Shown here one piece after another: positions 1,299 through 24,339 of a stretch of 34,383 nt of DNA (position 1 is its first letter; each line of letters opens with the position of its first letter). Origin of the DNA: a virus. A program made the position numbers and the translations under genes. The notes under the pieces are model-generated. The model worked only from the letters and a program-made list of their open reading frames with translations. It was not told the DNA's origin and searched no databases. Where the stretch lies: the UHGV virus genome UHGV-0341269; one strand, written 5' to 3'.

Positions 1299-1556
1299 CT
1301 AAAAATCACGCCCCTGCTTGCTCAAATAATGCACACAGGGACGTGACCCGGTTTTGACCACGTCGCCAGTCCTTGCCAGGTAATCCAGCCTGTGGGACAC
1401 GTTACTGGGGTCCAGATGGCACCTGTCAGCAATCTCCCGTGACGTTCTTCCCGGATGATCTCGGACCTCCATCAGGATAAGCAGCTGCGACGGCCGCACC
1501 CTCTGGCGGACAATGTTCCGCAACAGGTCTTTTCTGACTGACGACATGTTCTTCAT
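1299..1556 (-). CDS. Winged-helix (MarR-like) DNA-binding protein, 86 aa from the MKNM start
   Basis: LLILMEVRDHPGRTSREIADRCHLDPSNVSHRLDYLARTGDVV fits a winged-HTH; ATG at 1556 sits 8 nt after an AGGGAGG motif and 4 nt after the DnaB stop, so the two are translationally coupled; the ORF track's longer 1592 start is probably spurious. Confidence 0.5.
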   Translation of the reverse strand: MKNMSSVRKDLLRNIVRQRVRPSQLLILMEVRDHPGRTSREIADRCHLDPSNVSHRLDYLARTGDVVKTGSRPCVHYLSKQGRDF

Positions 1557-1560
1557 GATA

Positions 1561-2874
1561 TTAAGCCTCCCTGTAGGTAGTGGCGGCAGCATCCCATTTC
1601 AGGTCAATGTAACCAATCTCCCCGAAACGGTTCTTGCCGACGATGATTTTCGCCTCTTCCGGATCTGCATTTTTGTCCATGACGTATGGCCTGTAGAGCA
1701 ATAATATCTGGTCGGCATCCTGTTCGATGGAGCCGGAGTCGCGCAGGTCGGACACACGGGGAACCCCGGCTTCCTTCCCGGCGCGTTTCTCCGCTTCCCG
1801 GTTCAACTGGGCCAGCACGATTACCGGAATATTCAGCTCCTTGGCCAGGGCCTTGAGGCCGGCGGAAATCTCTGACACTTCCCGTTCCCGGGAAGCGCCG
1901 CGGCTGGAAGGATTGGCAAGCTGCAGGTAGTCCACGCCGATGCACCTCACGCCGTGGTCCGCCACCATGCGCCGGGCGGTTGCCTGGATCTGGTCAATCC
2001 TCAAGGCTCCCCGGTCGTCCACGAAGAAGGGCAGGCTCTTCACCTTGCGAACCGCATTGGTGAAAGCCTCCTGCTGCCACTTGGTCAGCTTGATGCCTCG
2101 GCGCAGATTGGCCGCATTGATTTTGGACATGCCAAAAAGCGTACGTTCAAGTAACTGCTCCTTGGACATTTCCAGAGAGAACATGCCTACTGGCACCCCT
2201 TCGGCAGCCAGATTGTACAGAATATTGGTCATGAAGGAAGTCTTCCCCACGGCGGGCCGGGCTCCGATGACGATCATGGAAGTCTTCTGCAGGCCGTCCA
2301 GCATCCTGTCCAGGGAGGGATACCCGGTAGGAAGCCCCTTGGTCTGTCCTGGATTCTTGATGCGGAACTCCAACCCTTCCACCACCTTCTGTGTGCCATC
2401 AGCCATGCGCGCCACTTGGGCCACTCCGTAAGTTTCCCGCAAGGAGGACATCACCTTTTCGGCTTCCGCCAGAACTTCGTCTTTGGTCAGGGTTGGGTTT
2501 TGAAGATTTTCCAGCCCGGAAATGAACAGGGATTCCACATCCCGCTTCTTCTTGGATTCCGCCAGAATCTTCACGGAGGGCTCGAACTGGAAATGGTAGG
2601 CAAAGCTGGTTGAAAGCTCGACAAGCCCGACATGTCCCCCTACGGATTCCAAGTCTCCGGAAGAGTCCAGGTGCTGGATCAGGTCGGTAATGTTGAGCTT
2701 CTCCGGCGTCTTGGACAAGGCTTCAAAGGCAGCCCATATTTTCTGGTGGGCAGGAAGGGCAAAGTGGCTCCTTCCAATGCCTTGTTCGACGAGAGCGGCC
2801 ACCTTGTCGGCTCCGTCAATGCAGTTGCCAAGAACGGTTTTCTCGGCGTTGAGTTGTGTTTCTGTAAGTTGCAT
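1561..2874 (-). CDS. dnaB: Replicative DNA helicase, DnaB family
   Basis: Walker A GARPAVGKTSF, plus the DnaB-type C-terminal RecA-like domain (GVDYLQL, LKALAKELNIPVIVLAQLNR, SDLRDSGSIEQDADQI). Confidence 0.9.
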   Translation of the reverse strand: MQLTETQLNAEKTVLGNCIDGADKVAALVEQGIGRSHFALPAHQKIWAAFEALSKTPEKLNITDLIQHLDSSGDLESVGGHVGLVELSTSFAYHFQFEPSVKILAESKKKRDVESLFISGLENLQNPTLTKDEVLAEAEKVMSSLRETYGVAQVARMADGTQKVVEGLEFRIKNPGQTKGLPTGYPSLDRMLDGLQKTSMIVIGARPAVGKTSFMTNILYNLAAEGVPVGMFSLEMSKEQLLERTLFGMSKINAANLRRGIKLTKWQQEAFTNAVRKVKSLPFFVDDRGALRIDQIQATARRMVADHGVRCIGVDYLQLANPSSRGASREREVSEISAGLKALAKELNIPVIVLAQLNREAEKRAGKEAGVPRVSDLRDSGSIEQDADQILLLYRPYVMDKNADPEEAKIIVGKNRFGEIGYIDLKWDAAATTYREA

Positions 2875-2890
2875 AAATTGTTATTGAGGG

Positions 2891-3706
2891 TTAAATGTTT
2901 TTTCTAAATCTTGGATCGAAGGGGTCTCTTTCCACTCCTGGTGATTGCCCTTTTGTTTCGAGGTTCCTTGCCCAACGCTGGGCGTAACTCCAAGCATTGC
3001 TTTTCCAGTTTGAAATAGGCACGCCTGACCTGTCCACCCAACCCAAACCGTCCCGATCCGCCCAGTATTGCTGGGCGCATTCTGGAATCTCTCTGGGGGG
3101 TAGGAGCAAGCAGCCTCTTCCAACCTCGTTTTTCAGGTGGGCTTCCACTTCTCCCGGTGAAGAAGGAAGAGAAGAACGAGAAGGAGCAGTTGCCGAACGC
3201 GAGCCGTTAGGCGAAGCTTCCTTCGTCTCCGTCTCCGATTTCGTATACGTATCCGTCTTCGTCTCCGTCTCCGTATAAGCGGTGGATTTCCGTGACTCAC
3301 CGTTATTCACCGTGGATTCCCGTGAACTACCGTGACTCACTGTATTACACGGTGAATCACCGTCAGGAAGCGGGAACTTGGGCTTACTCTGTCTGCGCTG
3401 CCCGAAATTGATGATCTGCACGTAATCCTTGCCCCCGACACAGTATGCCCTTACAAGCCCGGCTTCCTCCGTTTCGTGAAGGCAGTCTTGAATGTCCTGG
3501 TTACTGATTTTGTCAAGGTGCAGGGGGAATAAGCGAGTCCTCAATACCGTAGGGCGAGCGTCAAACAGGCCGTAGTCATCCGCCACCAACAGGAGCCGAT
3601 GGAAGAAGCATTCGGTACGCCATGAAAGTGCCGCGACCTTTTCTGAATCAAGGAACCCCTCTCTAATCATTCGTGATGTTGCCATACCCTTTAAGCATAA
3701 TTTCAA
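2891..3706 (-). CDS. Putative phage replication initiation / replisome-organiser protein, with a TETE-repeat linker
   Basis: Lies immediately upstream of dnaB in the same operon; the N-terminal domain resembles phage replisome organisers; the central low-complexity linker is encoded by an iteron-like DNA repeat array. Confidence 0.45.
   Translation of the reverse strand: MKLCLKGMATSRMIREGFLDSEKVAALSWRTECFFHRLLLVADDYGLFDARPTVLRTRLFPLHLDKISNQDIQDCLHETEEAGLVRAYCVGGKDYVQIINFGQRRQSKPKFPLPDGDSPCNTVSHGSSRESTVNNGESRKSTAYTETETKTDTYTKSETETKEASPNGSRSATAPSRSSLPSSPGEVEAHLKNEVGRGCLLLPPREIPECAQQYWADRDGLGWVDRSGVPISNWKSNAWSYAQRWARNLETKGQSPGVERDPFDPRFRKNI
3281..3360. repeat. Eight consecutive 10-bp iteron-like repeats (consensus CGTGANTCAC), flanked upstream by two copies of TCGTCTCCGTCTCCG (3224-3238, 3259-3273)
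   Basis: GGTGGATTTC/CGTGACTCAC/CGTTATTCAC/CGTGGATTCC/CGTGAACTAC/CGTGACTCAC/TGTATTACAC/GGTGAATCAC read directly; the period is one helical turn; they lie inside the initiator CDS, as in lambda O/ori. Confidence 0.55.
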
Positions 3707-3755
3707 TTGTCCTTTTTCTTACTCTCCGCGGCCTGGATGCTAAATATGGAGGGTT

Positions 3756-4247
3756 TCATAACACTGCCACCTTTCCATACCCCCGGTTTTGCAGTGTATG
3801 CAGTAGGGGTGCCTCGGTATTATCCCACGCCACAAGGCAACTTGGCGCGTTGGGCTGGTTTCCGTGGGTCTCACCGTCCGGGCGGCAAAAGCGGATGCGG
3901 CCTTTCCAAAGGAACAGATACCGGGCACGGTGCAGCACGCACCGCTGGAACCAGCGAGTATCTGACCTCATGAAAATGAGTGCCAGACCTCCGCCGACAT
4001 GGTTACTCATACGTTCCATGAACGCTTCTGCTTCATTCCCATAAGGAGGGTTAAGCCATACGCGCCCCTCCCATGGCATCAGAAGGCCGTTATCCTCCAC
4101 GGTGTAGTTAACACGGGCACAATCCCACGGACGCACGGTAGCGGCGCAGGGGTCCACGTCGAACTGTCCCAGCAGATCCAATACGTAGCGCGGAGTGAGC
4201 CAGACGTTGGTAGTTTGCGCGGTTTTGGCAGTGTTAAAGGTATTCAT
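3756..4247 (-). CDS. DNA N6-adenine methyltransferase (phage Dam-like)
   Basis: Catalytic NPPY motif (WLNPPYG) in a ~160-aa protein typical of the phage Dam family. Confidence 0.75.
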   Translation of the reverse strand: MNTFNTAKTAQTTNVWLTPRYVLDLLGQFDVDPCAATVRPWDCARVNYTVEDNGLLMPWEGRVWLNPPYGNEAEAFMERMSNHVGGGLALIFMRSDTRWFQRCVLHRARYLFLWKGRIRFCRPDGETHGNQPNAPSCLVAWDNTEAPLLHTLQNRGYGKVAVL

Positions 4248-5224
4248 TCTCCCTCCTTTCCGCGTCGGAATCTGCTGAGCAGAACCCGGAATGCTGTTGC
4301 CGCCACTGCCGGAACTTGTCCGTTGCCAAGGGCTTCAATGCGGTCCACTCTAGCGGCCACCCCATGAGCCACTCGGTCCACGTCGGGTTCAGCTGACCAC
4401 CATTCCCCGCAGTCATCTGTTTCCGCTCTTCCGTCGTGACAATCCCTTCGGCTTCCAGGGCTTTCATTTTCTGAAAAGCCCCACTTCCTCCGCACATGCC
4501 TTTTGTTCTTGGGGTAGGAAATCTGCTGGCTATAGTTCCCAGGTTCGGGGACTTCCGATTGCCCTGGCTGGAGCCGCTGTCCTTCCAATCCCGTGAGGTT
4601 GGAGTCGGGAATTTTGCAATCTGGTCGTTCAGGTTCCGACTTCGGGCTGGGTCTTCCCATCTTCTGGCTTCTCCCGTCCTGAAATCCCTGGCTTGCGGGG
4701 TTGCAAATTTCATGCCCTGCCCCAGCGGCGGAGTTGACAGCAAGTATCCACATGCGCTTACGCTCATGCGGGGCACCCACGTCGTCCGCTCCCAGCACCA
4801 TCCATTCCGCATCATACCCGATCGCGGCCAAGTCCCCAAGAACACATCCAAGCCCGCGAGAAGTGAGCATTGGGGAGTTCTCCACAAAGACGTATTTCGG
4901 TCGTACTTCGCCAACAATCCGGTGCATTTCCCGCCAGAGTCCAGAGCGGGCGCCATCAATGCCGGCACCTTTACCTGCCGCGCTGATGTCCTGGCACGGG
5001 AAGCCTCCAGATACCACGTCAACAAGGCCGCGCCATGGTCGCCCGTCAAAGGTGCATACGTCATCCCAAACCGGGAAAGGCGGGAGTAGGCCGTCATTCT
5101 GTCGGGCGAGCAGTACGCTTGCGGGATAGGGTTCGAGCTCGACGGCGCAGACGGTGCGGAATCCGAGCAGCTCGCTGCCAAGTATTCCTCCACCAGCGCC
5201 CGCGAAAAGATGTAGCTCATTCAC
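4244..5224 (-). CDS. DNA (cytosine-5)-methyltransferase
   Basis: Motif I LFAGAGG, motif IV GFPCQDIS, motif VI VENSP, and a C-terminal LGNGQVP (motif X-like); the stop overlaps the Dam start. Confidence 0.8.
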   Translation of the reverse strand: MNELHLFAGAGGGILGSELLGFRTVCAVELEPYPASVLLARQNDGLLPPFPVWDDVCTFDGRPWRGLVDVVSGGFPCQDISAAGKGAGIDGARSGLWREMHRIVGEVRPKYVFVENSPMLTSRGLGCVLGDLAAIGYDAEWMVLGADDVGAPHERKRMWILAVNSAAGAGHEICNPASQGFQDGRSQKMGRPSPKSEPERPDCKIPDSNLTGLEGQRLQPGQSEVPEPGNYSQQISYPKNKRHVRRKWGFSENESPGSRRDCHDGRAETDDCGEWWSAEPDVDRVAHGVAARVDRIEALGNGQVPAVAATAFRVLLSRFRRGKEGE

Positions 5225-11990: not shown

Positions 11991-13178
11991 TTACAAAACA
12001 ATCTTGCTGGATATTTCCTCTATTGCATGCACGACATCCTGCGAGTCGGGCCGGAAATATACCCGTTCAATCTCTTCAGAGTCATGCCCTACAATAAAAC
12101 GGCACAAGTCCGCCGGCACCCCTGCCAACCGCAAAATCGTCACCGCGGTCGCCCTCAGGCTGTGAAAGCTTTTTTCAGACAGCACGCGCTTGTCTCCCTT
12201 CCCTTTCCTTTCCCCGGCAGAAATGATGCCGTGTTTTTTCAGAAGTCCGGTAAACTCAAGAGAGAGCTTGCTGGACTTCCCGCCGCCTTGTGCGTGTTTC
12301 ATGGCGGCCAAAGGGAACACAAATTCATTGATGGAATATCTCTCCCTCTCTTCCAAAATCTCTTTCAGCGGTCGGATGATGGGCTTGTTCATGCGCCGCT
12401 TGGTTTTTTGTGAGGTCATGGCAATCAGTCCACCGTCAAGGTTGACCTGCTCCCATCTGAGGGTGGCAATATCGCCCAAACGCTGGCCGCCCGTATAAAG
12501 GCATACCCGTATCATGTCCGGCCATTCACCCGGTAAAATTTCTACCAGCCTCTTGACTTCTTCCACGGTGAACGCGTTGCGCTCCTGTTTGTCGTCCTGC
12601 TTTTTTTTCTTGTCCAGCCTGGCTCCCCTGAAAGGATTGGAGATGATCAATTCTTTTTCGACAGCCTGATTGAACGCGCAGGAAAGAGATTCGAGATACC
12701 TTGATACTGTACCGGATGACACGCGCTCCATTTCTGTCTCCGCAAACCGTCTCACGGTGTCTTTGTTGATGGAGGCTATGGCTTGCCCTCCATCATTCCC
12801 CAGGAACAAAATAAACTGCTTGATGGCCTTCCCGTCTCTTTCGTGTGCCTGAATCTTGCCGGATCGTGATTGCAGCCATTCATGGAGATACGCTCCAACG
12901 CTCACGGCCTTTCTGCCAAGGCTGGCCGCCTGAACATCTCCGCCAGCGATAGCTTTGAGCCGCTGCGAGTCAACAAAGCCGGTCTTGTGTCCATGCTCAA
13001 GCTCTTCGGCAATAAGGCGAGCCCTGGCCTCGTTTTGCGCTATGACCGCTCTTTTGTTTGCCCCGGGTGGAATAACCTTTGGCACCACGTCAATACGAGT
13101 GGTTTTCCTGACCTCTTTGCCGTCCAGCGTCTTGAAGACGGCTACCCATTTATTGCTTCTTTTGATAATCCCCGCCAT
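11991..13178 (-). CDS. int: Tyrosine site-specific integrase
   Basis: C-terminal catalytic region HSLRAT … VGHDSEEIERVYF (H-x-x-R and the Tyr nucleophile); N-terminal arm-binding-like domain; the first ATG is 13178 (MAGIIKRSNKW), and the ORF track begins at TTG 13190. Confidence 0.85.
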   Translation of the reverse strand: MAGIIKRSNKWVAVFKTLDGKEVRKTTRIDVVPKVIPPGANKRAVIAQNEARARLIAEELEHGHKTGFVDSQRLKAIAGGDVQAASLGRKAVSVGAYLHEWLQSRSGKIQAHERDGKAIKQFILFLGNDGGQAIASINKDTVRRFAETEMERVSSGTVSRYLESLSCAFNQAVEKELIISNPFRGARLDKKKKQDDKQERNAFTVEEVKRLVEILPGEWPDMIRVCLYTGGQRLGDIATLRWEQVNLDGGLIAMTSQKTKRRMNKPIIRPLKEILEERERYSINEFVFPLAAMKHAQGGGKSSKLSLEFTGLLKKHGIISAGERKGKGDKRVLSEKSFHSLRATAVTILRLAGVPADLCRFIVGHDSEEIERVYFRPDSQDVVHAIEEISSKIVL

Positions 13179-13180
13179 AG

Positions 13181-13386
13181 AACTGTACAATTTTTAAAAC
13201 TTGTACAGCCACTTGTACAGCAAGCATTCCGTTTTCTGTGGTAATGTAGCGTAATAAAAAAGCACGGAAACCTTGTAAAATCAGGCTTTCCGTGCTCTAG
13301 CGTAATAAAAAAGTGGCGGAGCGGGAGGGATTATATTTATTGATTATAAATATACTTATGAATATAATGTTCAGCTTTTTGTACAG
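13181..13386. other. Candidate attP region: four TTGTACAG repeats (13183-13190 inverted, 13201-13208, 13213-13220, 13379-13386), a 16-bp direct repeat AGCGTAATAAAAAAG ×2 (13248-13262, 13299-13313), and an AT-rich inverted repeat TATATTTAT-N5-ATAAATATA (13332-13354)
   Basis: Repeats read directly; placement next to int is typical for attP, with arm-type sites flanking a core. Confidence 0.4.
13253..13296 (-). terminator. Rho-independent terminator (minus strand): 10-bp stem AGCACGGAAA/TTTCCGTGCT, 16-nt loop, then a U-run
   Basis: Perfect stem 13261-13270 / 13287-13296; the T-run on the minus strand corresponds to plus 13253-13260 AATAAAAA; it lies downstream of the tail/GT operon. Confidence 0.6.
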
Positions 13387-16375: not shown

Positions 16376-16957
16376 TTATTTTTTGTCGGCGATCTGCTGA
16401 AGCAACGTCAGCACTTTCGCAAACCAAAAACACAGGAGGCAAGAGAAAGCCCCAGAAATCAGGTAAATGAAACATAAGGCCTGTTGCCCATCATCTGCGG
16501 TAGAGTAAAACAGCACAATCCCAGCAAGTAAAGCTATTACGCCAACAACACGGAATATCCCCTCTATTGTGATTTTTAGAGGCTCTTGATCGTTCAGTTC
16601 TTGGATTTCTTTCCAAGAAGGATTTTTTCTGGAATCTCTAAGAGAGCATTCAATAAAGCTCTTCTTTGGTTTGCACTCCGTTTCTTTTTTTTCTGCTTTT
16701 CTTTTTTCTGACTCATCTAAGAGAACTTCAATAAAGCTCTTCTTTGGTTTGCGCTCCGTTTCTTTTTCTTCTGCTTTTCTGTTGGTGTTTTTGGTCAGAT
16801 GATAAACCCTTCCAAATGGCATCCACTCTTGACCGCCTTCAGGGAAAACAAGTGTTTCTGATAAGATTTCCCCTTCCTTGTATAAGGCCTCAAGTTCTTC
16901 AAAAGAGTAGGGGCCCTCGGCGTTGTTTGAGTTGGAAGCAACGTAATAATTAGCCAT
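16376..16957 (-). CDS. DUF4339 (GYF-like) domain membrane protein with an internal 26-aa tandem repeat and two C-terminal TM helices; AT-rich moron inside the tail module
   Basis: YYVASNSNNAEGPYSFEELEALYKEGEILSETLVFPEGGQEWMPFGRV matches the DUF4339 consensus; hydrophobic C-terminus; GC content is far below the flanks. Confidence 0.5.
   Translation of the reverse strand: MANYYVASNSNNAEGPYSFEELEALYKEGEILSETLVFPEGGQEWMPFGRVYHLTKNTNRKAEEKETERKPKKSFIEVLLDESEKRKAEKKETECKPKKSFIECSLRDSRKNPSWKEIQELNDQEPLKITIEGIFRVVGVIALLAGIVLFYSTADDGQQALCFIYLISGAFSCLLCFWFAKVLTLLQQIADKK
16636..16791. repeat. 78-bp tandem direct repeat ×2 (…TCTAAGAGA…TTCAATAAAGCTCTTCTTTGGTTTGC[A/G]CTCCGTTTCTTTTT…)
   Basis: Read directly; it encodes the KAEEKETERKPKKSFIE repeat of the DUF4339 protein. 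Confidence 0.7.
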
Positions 16958-22173: not shown

Positions 22174-24339
22174 TTATTGTGCTAATTGGTTGATTTCTAC
22201 AACAGCGGCCTCGGCGTAATGGTGGCCGACAAACGCCCACACTTGCCGGGGTTGCCCGGTCGTGTTGGCCGCCAGCGTCAGGACAACCTGGCCGCCGGAC
22301 CCTATTTCTTCAGAGGATTGCGTGCACCACACAGCGGCGGGGTCATGTCCGCACATGGTATCGTTCAGCACATAGATAGCTTCGGAGAGGGTGGAAGACG
22401 CCGTCAATGTCACCTCGCCGCCAGAGGCCGGAACTTCCTGCGCAGAAGCCGTTACTTCTGGAACTGGTTTAGGCGTCACACCCTCCATTACCGTGTCCTT
22501 CATGAGGCCCCAGGAATTGGTTATGCCCAGTGAGGGTACATTGTCTATCCTTATCCCTCCCATACGGAGGCCCGCCTGATAAGTCCCGCTGACTTCGTGT
22601 GCTTTGAATTTGGTTGTAAGGCATGCTGTGTTGCCGGCGCCCCAAAAGGAGGAAGCCATATCCATTACATATTGCTTGTCCACAAACAAAGCCCAGCGAT
22701 TGTAAATCTCCTGGTCATCGGGGTTGGGTGGCGTCATGGCCGCGGAGACGTAGGTAAAAGCCGGAGCCAATGCCCAAACATAATGGGAATCTACCTTGAG
22801 GGGTCCATAAAACGTTCCTCTTATCAAGGCCGACTTATTGCTCCCCAGATACCCCATAGGGTAGGTAGTGATCTGATACGCCGGCACATTGTCGCCCCCT
22901 CTCGCTCCATTGACTGTATTGTTTTGAGGGTATCTGTAATTTGCATTATCCCAGGCATAATCCACCCAGTGCACAGGATGTGCATAGCAGGACGCCAGCG
23001 GATCGGCAGTCGTAGCGTACCCTTGGGCAGTGCTGCCCAAGAGGACCGACACCTTGTCAGAGCCAAGTATCCGCCAGACGCAAGCGGCAGCATATTCGTT
23101 ATTTCTATTGTTGCCCATGTAATTGGCAAATTTCCATGATCCCGTGGATTTGCCGATAACAGAAACACCCCCTGCCGCCGTCATGGTTAACACCATATCG
23201 CACAAGTCGTTATTAAATACTCCCTTCTTCAGGGAGGCGTTAGCGGTAGCAATTGCGTAGCTTGTGCTCAACGACTGGGCTTCCGCCAAGGCAGTCACCC
23301 ATGACGGAATGACGGATTCCAGAAAATAATTGGTGCGGCTCCATTGGCCGGCAGCCGTCATGGTTATCATTCCCTCATAGGAAATGGCATTCTGCCCTGT
23401 GGCGGGCAGCGGCACACGGACTCCTTCGATTGCGGTGATCGTGGCGTCGTAGGTCTGCGGCTGCGTCCAGTTATAAGAACCGTCCGGATTAACATCCCCC
23501 GTATCTCCTTTCTCGCCACGGGGCCCTTGGGGCCCCTCCGGCCCCTCGGGTCCTTGCGGGCCGGCAGGACCCTGCGGTCCGGTTTCTCCAATGTCGCCTC
23601 TTGGTCCCTGTTCTCCGGTCGCTCCCTGAGGACCTTGAGGTCCTGCGTCGCCCCTGGGACCCTGGGGGCCTTCGGGGCCGGTTTCGCCCGGTTCCCCCTG
23701 CGGGCCTGGTGGGCCTTCGGGGCCGGCGTCTCCTTTGGGGATGGTAAACGACAACAGATAAGAGCCCGCTTCCGAGCCTTTCACGGCTTCCGCTGCGGCA
23801 GGAGTGCCAGGTTCGCCGGTAGTGACCCGGTCCACCGAAAGATTGAAATTCTCGGCGTACTTCTTGGCCTGCTCCGCGTACCAGGCGGCGCTTGACGCAT
23901 TATCAAGCACCACCTGCACGCATCCGCTTCCTTCCGGCAGCTGCACGACGACCGCACCCGCTACCGCCTGCTGCTCGTCCGGCAAGTCCGGCGTCACCCG
24001 GCCTGAGGAAACAAAGCATCCATAGAGAAGCGGGCTTTCCTCATTGCCGTCATCCATGAAGACATCGTAGGACCACATGCCCGCGGGCACCGAGGCCCAC
24101 GAAATCACGCCGTTGCCCTCGTCGTCACGGGAAAAGCCGAACTCGGCGATACCCGTCTTGAGGCGAACGGCTCCGCGCAGGGTGACGCCGCCCATATCGA
24201 CGGGATCCCCCTGGAAATCCACCACGCGCACGACCAGTGACTGGTTGAGCCCCGTGACTGTCCGGATGTCATATTTTCCTGCCTGTTGCCTGAAAAAAAA
24301 GGAGGATGCGGGGGCGCGCGGCGCCCCCTTGTGAAACAC
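22174..24339 (-). CDS. Collagen-like repeat tail fibre protein (about 27 G-X-Y triplets) with a C-terminal beta-rich receptor-binding region
   Basis: [80 protein letters not shown]. Confidence 0.6.
23490..23735. repeat. DNA encoding the collagen-like G-X-Y triple-helix repeat (GGNCCN-rich periodic sequence)
   Basis: Periodic GGGCC/GGTCC-rich sequence read directly. Confidence 0.6.

Follow-up and report, generated by a model that had tools for sequence, protein, structure and literature searches.

We report here a candidate replication origin in the virus genome UHGV-0341269, analysed as one strand of 34,383 nucleotides (this whole stretch is referred to below as the window). The candidate consists of two adjoining tandem-repeat arrays, one with a period of 10 base pairs (bp) and one with a period of 6 bp, that lie inside a gene whose product is predicted to be a replication initiator. 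Comparative and statistical evidence leads us to the view that the region 3221-3365 is the replication origin of this phage, a reading to which we assign a probability of roughly 0.6, and that the origin is embedded in the part of its own initiator gene that encodes a predicted disordered linker, which is the layout of phage lambda. We consider it very likely that the arrays have a function as DNA and are not by-products of the linker that they encode. The features on which this view depends are given below; the protein domains are taken from an AlphaFold2 (AF2) model built from a 50-sequence alignment, with confidence expressed as the predicted local distance difference test (pLDDT).

2891-3685, minus strand: replication-initiator gene, 264 amino acids (aa), matching PHROG 'replication initiation protein' families, with a conserved ATG at 3685.
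3401-3685, minus strand: N-terminal winged-helix domain (aa 1-95), AF2 pLDDT above 90, with three helices and a beta-hairpin wing at 78-91.
3362-3400, minus strand: basic tail after the wing (aa 96-108, QRRQSKPKFPLPD), containing Q99, which covaries with array type.
3280-3365, no strand assigned: phased 10-bp array of eight full units and one partial unit, candidate initiator-binding iterons.
3221-3274, no strand assigned: hexamer array of nine units, (A/T)CGNA(G/T/A) on the gene strand and CGTCTC-like on the plus strand, candidate second origin element (unwinding or helicase entry).
2945-3178, minus strand: C-terminal three-helix domain (aa 170-247), confident in AF2, candidate helicase-recruitment module.
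1561-2874, minus strand: DnaB-family replicative helicase gene, directly downstream of the initiator gene (PF03796, E 7.5e-84; PF00772, E 4.8e-11; PHROG 19, E 2.9e-88).

Two arrays within a putative initiator gene

The 10-bp array consists, on the plus strand from 3280, of the units CGGTGGATTT, CCGTGACTCA, CCGTTATTCA, CCGTGGATTC, CCGTGAACTA, CCGTGACTCA, CTGTATTACA and CGGTGAATCA, followed by a partial unit, CCGTCA. No other 86-nt frame of the 34-kb window reaches the lag-10 identity of the frame that begins at 3280, 0.605 (window mean 0.257, standard deviation 0.054), and in 200 first-order Markov simulations the highest value was 0.50, with the maxima averaging 0.444. Copies of the motif with at most one mismatch are clustered at 3290-3362, and those elsewhere in the window are isolated. 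An earlier note on this DNA, made from the sequence alone, had described eight 10-bp repeats sharing the palindromic core GTGAnTCAC. The array itself is borne out by these figures; the palindrome is not a general property of its units, being exact in only three of the eight (3292, 3332 and 3352), with one mismatch at 3302 and two to three mismatches in the remaining units. The gene-strand consensus is T-G-A-n-T-C-A-C-(G/C)-G, in which A7, C8 and G10 are identical in all eight units. Positions 4 and 9 vary most. The palindromes GTGA-n-TCAC and TCAC-s-GTGA, which overlap, are centred on these two positions, and the array can therefore be described as an alternating GTGA/TCAC lattice. Each third unit is degenerate (the plus-strand units at 3280, 3310 and 3340), so that a TGA stop in the reading frame is avoided, and it is for this reason that the lag-30 identity of the array (0.68) exceeds its lag-10 identity (0.61). 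All sites had also been placed on the same face of the DNA. This holds only approximately, because at 10.5 bp per turn a period of 10 bp drifts, by simple arithmetic, about 17 degrees per unit and about 137 degrees across eight. The sequence GANTC occurs four times in 80 bp inside the 10-bp array (3294, 3315, 3334 and 3354), and in the window as a whole it is rarer than composition predicts (92 occurrences versus about 130 expected).

The second array, made up on the gene strand of the units ACGGAG ACGGAG ACGAAG ACGGAT ACGTAT ACGAAA TCGGAG ACGGAG ACGAAG, encodes the peptide T-E-T-E-T-K-T-D-T-Y-T-K-S-E-T-E-T-K. It is the sole run of more than three such units in the window, and here too the lag-6 identity, 0.771, is higher than anywhere else in the window; none of the 200 simulations matched it. 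The two 15-bp direct repeats TCGTCTCCGTCTCCG that had been noticed just upstream of the 10-bp array are indeed present, at 3223-3237 and 3259-3273; they are not a separate element, since both fall inside the nine-unit hexamer array, which is found family-wide. Also in the disordered-linker region, a purine-rich tract on the plus strand at 3159-3187, AAGAAGGAAGAGAAGAACGAGAAGGAG, is specific to the DnaB-associated C-terminal class described below and is partly complementary to 3217-3231 (15 nt, 87%).

The gene that encloses the arrays matches PHROG 1408, 2149, 16167, 5810 and 12556, all of them 'replication initiation protein' families, with E values ranging from 2.1e-17 (phrog_1408, residues 2-161) to 6e-10. 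Together with the adjoining DnaB gene, these matches uphold the proposal that 2891-3706 is a putative initiator gene upstream of dnaB, except for its start: the mechanical open reading frame (ORF) reaches a TTG at 3706, and conservation places the start at the ATG at 3685, all relatives beginning with MATSRMIREG. Neither alone nor as a 50-member family did the protein give a sequence match in Pfam, NCBIfam or the Protein Data Bank (PDB). Membership of the DnaD-like or Phage_rep_org_N families received no Pfam match at E below 0.1; homologues in Paenibacillus phages have been labelled 'DnaD domain protein' by their depositors, and share just 31% identity over the N-domain. A search of genome contigs with the initiator protein produced no confirmed relative. 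Clustered at 50% identity, the matches to the N-domain alone (3401-3685) form 7,204 clusters with E<=1e-3 and 3,022 with E<=1e-10. Judged by these searches, the putative initiators form a very large family for which Pfam and NCBIfam have no model.

In the AF2 model, residues 110-169, encoded by 3179-3358 of the window, have a pLDDT below 50 and lie between two confident domains. The arrays at 3221-3365 encode residues 107-155, nearly all of which are inside this segment. Both arrays are thus located in a predicted disordered linker between the winged-helix N-domain and the helical C-domain, in agreement with the placement of the repeats in the earlier note. A Foldseek search against the PDB gave weak matches (best E 6.7e-3), all of them to winged-helix proteins: CodY, Fur, TubR, ArsR-type proteins and Orc1/Cdc6.

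Constraint on the DNA and conservation among relatives

Several lines of evidence indicate that the arrays are conserved as DNA. Firstly, the period of 10 is not divisible by three, and therefore the peptide encoded by the 10-bp array, GDSPCNTVSHGSSRESTVNNGESRKST, is not repetitive. Secondly, in nine distinct related arrays the minimum substitutions at codon positions 1, 2 and 3 stand at 11:9:13, versus 7:5:39 where these genes encode the N-domain, a distribution indicating that the N-domain is under purifying selection at the level of the protein. Thirdly, positions 7, 8 and 10 of the unit vary among relatives in 3 of 24 columns, compared with 24 of 56 at the other positions (Fisher p 0.0098). 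Fourthly, none of the 27 units in the nine arrays that start at codon position 1 begins with TGA, which would be an in-frame stop, and GAA, AAA, TGC, AAT or TGT is found instead; in the other two phases, 31 of 45 units begin with TGA. Since TGA is avoided only in the in-frame phase, it is the ORF that imposes degeneracy on the DNA motif, and not the reverse. The hexamer array shows a comparable pattern. Most genes translate it as T-E/T-K, and the loci L028, L032, L033 and L036 as (Y/D)-G-D-V. In this second frame ACGTAG is more frequent than any other unit (10 of 30); in the first frame, in which its TAG would act as a stop, it does not occur, and ACGTAT takes its place. Taken together, these patterns indicate that both arrays are under selection at the DNA level and are shaped by the reading frame.

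The N-domain and a GTGAnTCAC-type array are retained in 24 IMG/VR loci, and the C-terminal part of the protein falls into three unrelated or diverged classes. Class a is found with DnaB (the window, L027, L029, L030, and the Akkermansia phages Chantilly and Chambord), class b with a DnaC/IstB-like AAA+ gene (L006, L028, L031 and L032), and class c, which is long, has neither DnaB nor a loader downstream (L018). By this comparison, a change in the C-terminal domain goes with a change in the partner gene downstream. The C-domain of the window protein is 38-43% identical to the C-terminus of the protein encoded upstream of DnaB in Chantilly and Chambord.

In distant homologues, phased arrays with a period of 10 or 11 bp occupy the same place in the gene as the window array. 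Those of L028 (ACAATTGCRG, lag-10 identity 0.90) and L032 (AGAACCACGG) have 10-bp units, and those of L034 (AGCAACTTGCA) and L027 (TGTCAG-type) have 11-bp units. L029 and L030 have two sets of 11-bp units on either side of an AT-rich spacer, and in L035 GCGGC and GCCGC alternate at multiples of about 10 bp. The length of the array in relatives varies by multiples of 10 residues, corresponding to three units, and exactly 10 or 20 array residues (3 or 6 units) are missing from the proteins P0046, P0048, P0049 and P0056. In L036 the motif array occurs twice: six units are located mid-gene, and four are located at the 3' end of the gene (1705-1745) in a different coding context, just ahead of the DnaB start and about 250 bp downstream of the mid-gene array.

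Nearly all subfamilies examined, including a prophage of the gammaproteobacterium Luteimonas, have the hexamer array, with 4-11 units; its conservation extends across phyla, and near-identical phages may differ in its unit number (9 versus 10). Homologues in cultured phages (L117-L121, from four phyla) have iteron-like repeats followed by a strand-biased tandem repeat with a period of 5, 6, 7 or 8 bp: (GGAGAA)6 in Stenotrophomonas phage SOVA965, (GGAACAGG)4 in Mycobacterium phage Bernal13, (GGAACAG)5 in Marinomonas phage P12026, (GAACA)n in Paenibacillus phage Mock2 and (CCTTCT)n in Moorella phage MCACPph1. These comparisons indicate that the two-part arrangement is general across the initiator protein family.

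A relation between the protein and its array is seen in the basic tail. A strict co-variation of the globular winged-helix domain with array type is rejected by the pair L028/L032, and therefore we turned to the tail. In L028 (2786-2950) and L032 (2786-2940), the two initiator genes are identical through codon 96, sharply different from codon 97 to the end of the array, and similar again in the hexamer repeat. The swapped cassette thus comprises the basic tail (residues 97-108) and the 10-bp array, which is CAATTGC-type in L028 and CCACGG-type in L032, and L032 retains two L028-type units ahead of seven window-type units. When all retrieved proteins are sorted into two array types by a regular-expression match on the encoded peptide, a clear division appears at residue 99 (codon 3389-3391), three positions beyond the invariant Q96: proteins whose array peptide is of the GTGAnTCAC type have Q, L or M there, and those with other arrays have R in 117 of 119 cases. 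This association has a Fisher p of 2e-30 for all proteins and 2e-12 for 50%-identity representatives, both uncorrected for phylogeny. The mutual information with array class is 0.50 bits at residue 99 and at most 0.21 bits at 22 other positions (-12 to +10), including positions nearer to the array. These results argue for a functional link between the tail of the putative initiator and the array.

The origin reading and its alternatives

The proposed mechanism is as follows. The N-terminal winged-helix domain and the basic tail would bind the 10-bp GTGA/TCAC lattice at about one site per helical turn, with Q99 adding to the binding specificity, and a phased nucleoprotein array would result. 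The purine-rich (ACGNAG)9 would replace the AT-rich, purine-biased tract of lambda as the site of strand opening or helicase entry, and the C-terminal helical domain would recruit the DnaB encoded by the next gene. We infer that the initiator binds the array and that replication starts there; the position and the strand bias of the hexamer array suggest its role as an unwinding or helicase-entry element. A further proposal, which we put forward tentatively and with considerable doubt, is that origin specificity is carried by a self-contained cassette of about 120 bp, formed by the reader tail with residue 99 and its sites, and that a swap of this cassette re-programs an otherwise identical initiator, as in L028 versus L032. 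The adjoining short tandem repeat that is not AT-rich, that is, (ACGNAG)n and its purine-rich equivalents of 5-8 bp, would according to the same proposal represent a previously unrecognised class of unwinding or helicase-entry element that is conserved across bacterial phyla and is read in any frame.

Several observations weigh against the origin reading. An AT-rich unwinding tract was sought beside the array and none was found: duplex stability (30-step) over 3150-3400 is within one standard deviation of the window mean, with a guanine plus cytosine (G+C) content of 0.45-0.61, and the least stable 30-mer of the initiator gene is located at 2891-2921, about 360 bp from the array. The cumulative GC skew has no inflection at 3.3 kb, a result that is uninformative for a phage transcribed from one strand. 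Natural variants exist that have only 2-5 units (about 5 and about 2). Averaged over its positions, the array has 0.41 substitutions per site versus 0.39 at third codon positions; only its core positions are constrained. As the L028/L032 pair shows, the globular domain does not strictly follow the array, and GTGAnTCAC-type arrays also occur with several diverged N-domains. Finally, the residue-99 statistics lack a phylogenetic correction, and the codon is located about 20 bp from the array.

No DNA in the gene region is less stable than the junction between the initiator gene and dnaB (2870-2921), which stands at the 98.9th percentile of the window and may offer another site for unwinding, or may be no more than an AT-rich ribosome-binding stretch between the two genes. 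A scan of 2700-4400 for promoters and terminators gave results at chance level, and a structured-RNA reading was dropped after an Rfam search of 2500-4000 on both strands, at a permissive threshold, returned nothing.

Some of these observations would fit a role for the arrays in regulation. The arrays could be sites at which the initiator or another protein (host DnaA, a MarR-like protein or a repressor) acts in autoregulation, as a transcription roadblock or in copy control, with the true origin elsewhere, for example at the AT-rich initiator/dnaB junction. Selection at the DNA level and the covariation of residue 99 imply a relationship between protein and DNA, not the firing of an origin; the least stable DNA of the gene lies away from the array; and a MarR-like gene is a conserved neighbour. 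Units such as TGATTCACC match a relaxed DnaA box, whose consensus we take to be TTWTNCACA, at 6-7 of 9 positions. However, the units of other subfamilies (ACAATTGCRG, AGCAACTTGCA) are unlike DnaA boxes, and therefore we give less weight to host DnaA as the reader. In addition, the array moves with the tail of the initiator and not with the MarR-like gene, and iterons followed by a strand-biased repeat, in the order seen in lambda, suit an origin best. On balance we regard a purely regulatory role as unlikely.

The arrays could also be structural or recombinational DNA, either curved or flexible, or a microsatellite-like crossover point at which N- and C-terminal modules are shuffled, without sequence-specific binding. 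It is the period (10 or 11 bp) that is conserved, and not the sequence of the unit; the module boundaries, that is, those of the three C-terminal classes and of the L028/L032 cassette, coincide exactly with the array and the hexamer repeat; and the hexamer unit number differs (9 versus 10) in near-identical phages. These points are countered by the retention of specific core positions within a subfamily, by the covariation of array type with one residue of the protein and by the recurrence of the motif at the second site in L036. Moreover, curvature and binding are compatible, as in the lambda iterons (PMC7466680). This explanation is, in our judgement, quite improbable.

The remaining two explanations fare worse. 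It could be argued that the repeats are a mere by-product of a low-complexity, slippage-prone linker and have no function as DNA, given that the region encodes a predicted disordered linker, that its hexamer part yields a TE/TK dipeptide repeat and that the repeat number varies. The earlier note had named, among the results that would refute its origin, repeats that reflect only a repetitive amino-acid linker with no initiator binding. Against a by-product of the linker it can be said that a 10-bp period cannot arise from an amino-acid repeat, substitutions are indifferent to codon position, TGA is avoided only in the in-frame phase, and the hexamer DNA is kept in two frames with different peptides, TETE versus GDVD. 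The pattern of substitutions and that of TGA point to constraint on the DNA, and the by-product explanation is largely refuted and very improbable. The parC and tubC centromeres typically consist of back-to-back repeats, each about one helical turn in length, but a centromere-like or packaging (pac) site for a TubR/ParR-like or terminase protein is hardly credible even though TubR is among the weak fold matches and a small terminase gene lies two genes away in some relatives, because an integrase is present, a scan of ORFs that left out some small ones showed no partition nucleoside triphosphatase, and the array stays with the initiator gene across relatives that have different neighbours.

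The phage and the comparison with known systems

The window contains genes for an integrase (11991-13190), an anti-repressor, RecE-like and RecT-like proteins, Dam-type and C5 methyltransferases, tail proteins, a protease and a portal protein. This gene set, which includes the integrase and the anti-repressor, identifies a temperate phage; its nearest cultured relatives by DnaB are the Akkermansia phages Chantilly and Chambord. Both arrays are carried by a temperate phage of the Akkermansia type. The IMG/VR contig L003 has 99% identity across the initiator. In this integrase-carrying phage the initiator gene is surrounded by an early module of RecT, RecE and methyltransferase genes, in which the methyltransferases are upstream of the initiator gene and the RecE-like and RecT-like genes are further along; a gene for a Dam-family N6-adenine methyltransferase (3756-4247, minus strand) adjoins the initiator gene on its upstream side. 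A small MarR-like winged-helix gene is a conserved neighbour (1299-1592, minus strand, in the window; 4026-4307 in L018; 4682-4969 in L029). Its place is after the gene for the helicase, for the loader or for the initiator and, in relatives, ahead of the small terminase gene. Two other repeats occur elsewhere in the window. A tandem duplication of 78 bp at 16623-16780 (2.0 copies, 91% match) is located within a T-rich stretch of lower G+C (about 0.45 at 16-18 kb). A 9-bp repeat, GGGGCCCCT, is present in 4.7 copies at 23520-23562, within a tail-fibre-like gene (22174-24339, minus strand), and probably encodes a collagen-like Gly-X-Y segment.

If the origin reading is confirmed, temperate phages of Akkermansia, a gut bacterium for which genetic tools are scarce, would gain a candidate pair of origin and initiator that could seed replicons or shuttle vectors, and the lambda principle of an in-gene origin would be extended to a very large family outside Pfam and NCBIfam. 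The initiator family is in addition a natural dataset of unusual clarity for the study of how one set of bases can serve both a DNA signal and an ORF, with degeneracy shaped by stop codons and a single repeat that is translated in two frames. From it come a testable hypothesis on specificity (Q99 versus R99) and, as a candidate unwinding element, a repeat that is not AT-rich. The cultivable phages SOVA965, Bernal13, P12026, Mock2 and Moorella MCACPph1 are systems in which the origin hypothesis could be tested.

The origin of lambda lies midway along the O gene, where four O-binding iterons with dyad symmetry are followed by a 40-bp AT-rich tract (PMC5043065, PMC7466680). The lambda iterons are both bent and bound (PMC7466680), and Stx phages have six iterons instead of four and an O protein that is longer by 13 residues (PMC7466680). 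The annotated lambda iterons (39034-39118) correspond to codons 117-145 of 299, with starts that are 20, 24 and 23 bp apart, and a purine-rich AT tract comes next. In the window, the 10-bp array corresponds to codons 107-136 of 264, and the purine-rich hexamer array comes after it along the direction of transcription. As in lambda and lambdoid phages, sites with dyad symmetry lie in the coding sequence of a linker, which here joins a putative DNA-binding N-domain to a candidate helicase-recruiting C-domain, and the gene for the helicase or its loader comes next; as in Stx and lambdoid phages, the number of sites varies among relatives and adds residues to the protein. The earlier note had called the arrangement a copy of lambda O and its origin. 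With respect to layout this is accurate, and it does not extend to the protein: the comparison with lambda O gave an hhalign probability of 0.1% (E 0.59), and neither the window protein nor 50 relatives match PF04492 (Phage_rep_O). There are further differences. The window has eight contiguous 10-bp units, in contrast to four iterons of 18-19 bp about two turns apart; its second element is a 54-bp (ACGNAG)9 of ordinary G+C, in contrast to the 40-bp AT-rich tract; and the partner is a DnaB encoded by the phage, not a P-type loader for the helicase of the host. Of the properties of a lambda-type in-gene origin, repeats in the linker and a C-domain matched to the helicase or loader are present, and an AT-rich tract is absent. 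What these comparisons suggest is the logic of lambda carried out with a different initiator family, a different repeat grammar and a different second element, a combination that is undescribed as far as the searchable literature shows.

Closer relatives by protein are the initiators of PHROG 1408, 2149, 5810, 16167 and 12556 (Bernal13 gp48, P12026 gp37 and that of SOVA965), which have a homologous N-domain and the same mid-gene layout. They differ in the sequences and periods of their units, and their annotation is by homology only; published origin mapping for a member of the initiator family was not found in the searchable literature. The hypothetical protein encoded upstream of DnaB in Chantilly and Chambord comes from phages of the same host genus and shares the gene order and a homologous C-domain. 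In Chantilly the gene contains mid-gene repeats of a 12-bp GGAACCGA-type, followed by a GGAA-rich tract. The N-domain of these proteins, on the other hand, is unrelated (no PHROG match), and the repeats differ, their 12-bp period being in frame.

Short sites about one helical turn apart are also found in the 11/12-mers of Vibrio cholerae RctB, in the arrays of low-affinity DnaA boxes at E. coli oriC, and in the TubR-tubC and ParR-parC systems. These arrays resemble that of the window in having contiguous or near-contiguous sites of 10-12 bp that would align proteins, and in having winged-helix or ribbon-helix-helix readers. They differ from it in that the proteins are others and the sites are non-coding; none of them is known to be embedded in an ORF nor, accordingly, to show the shaping by a reading frame that is seen in the arrays described here.

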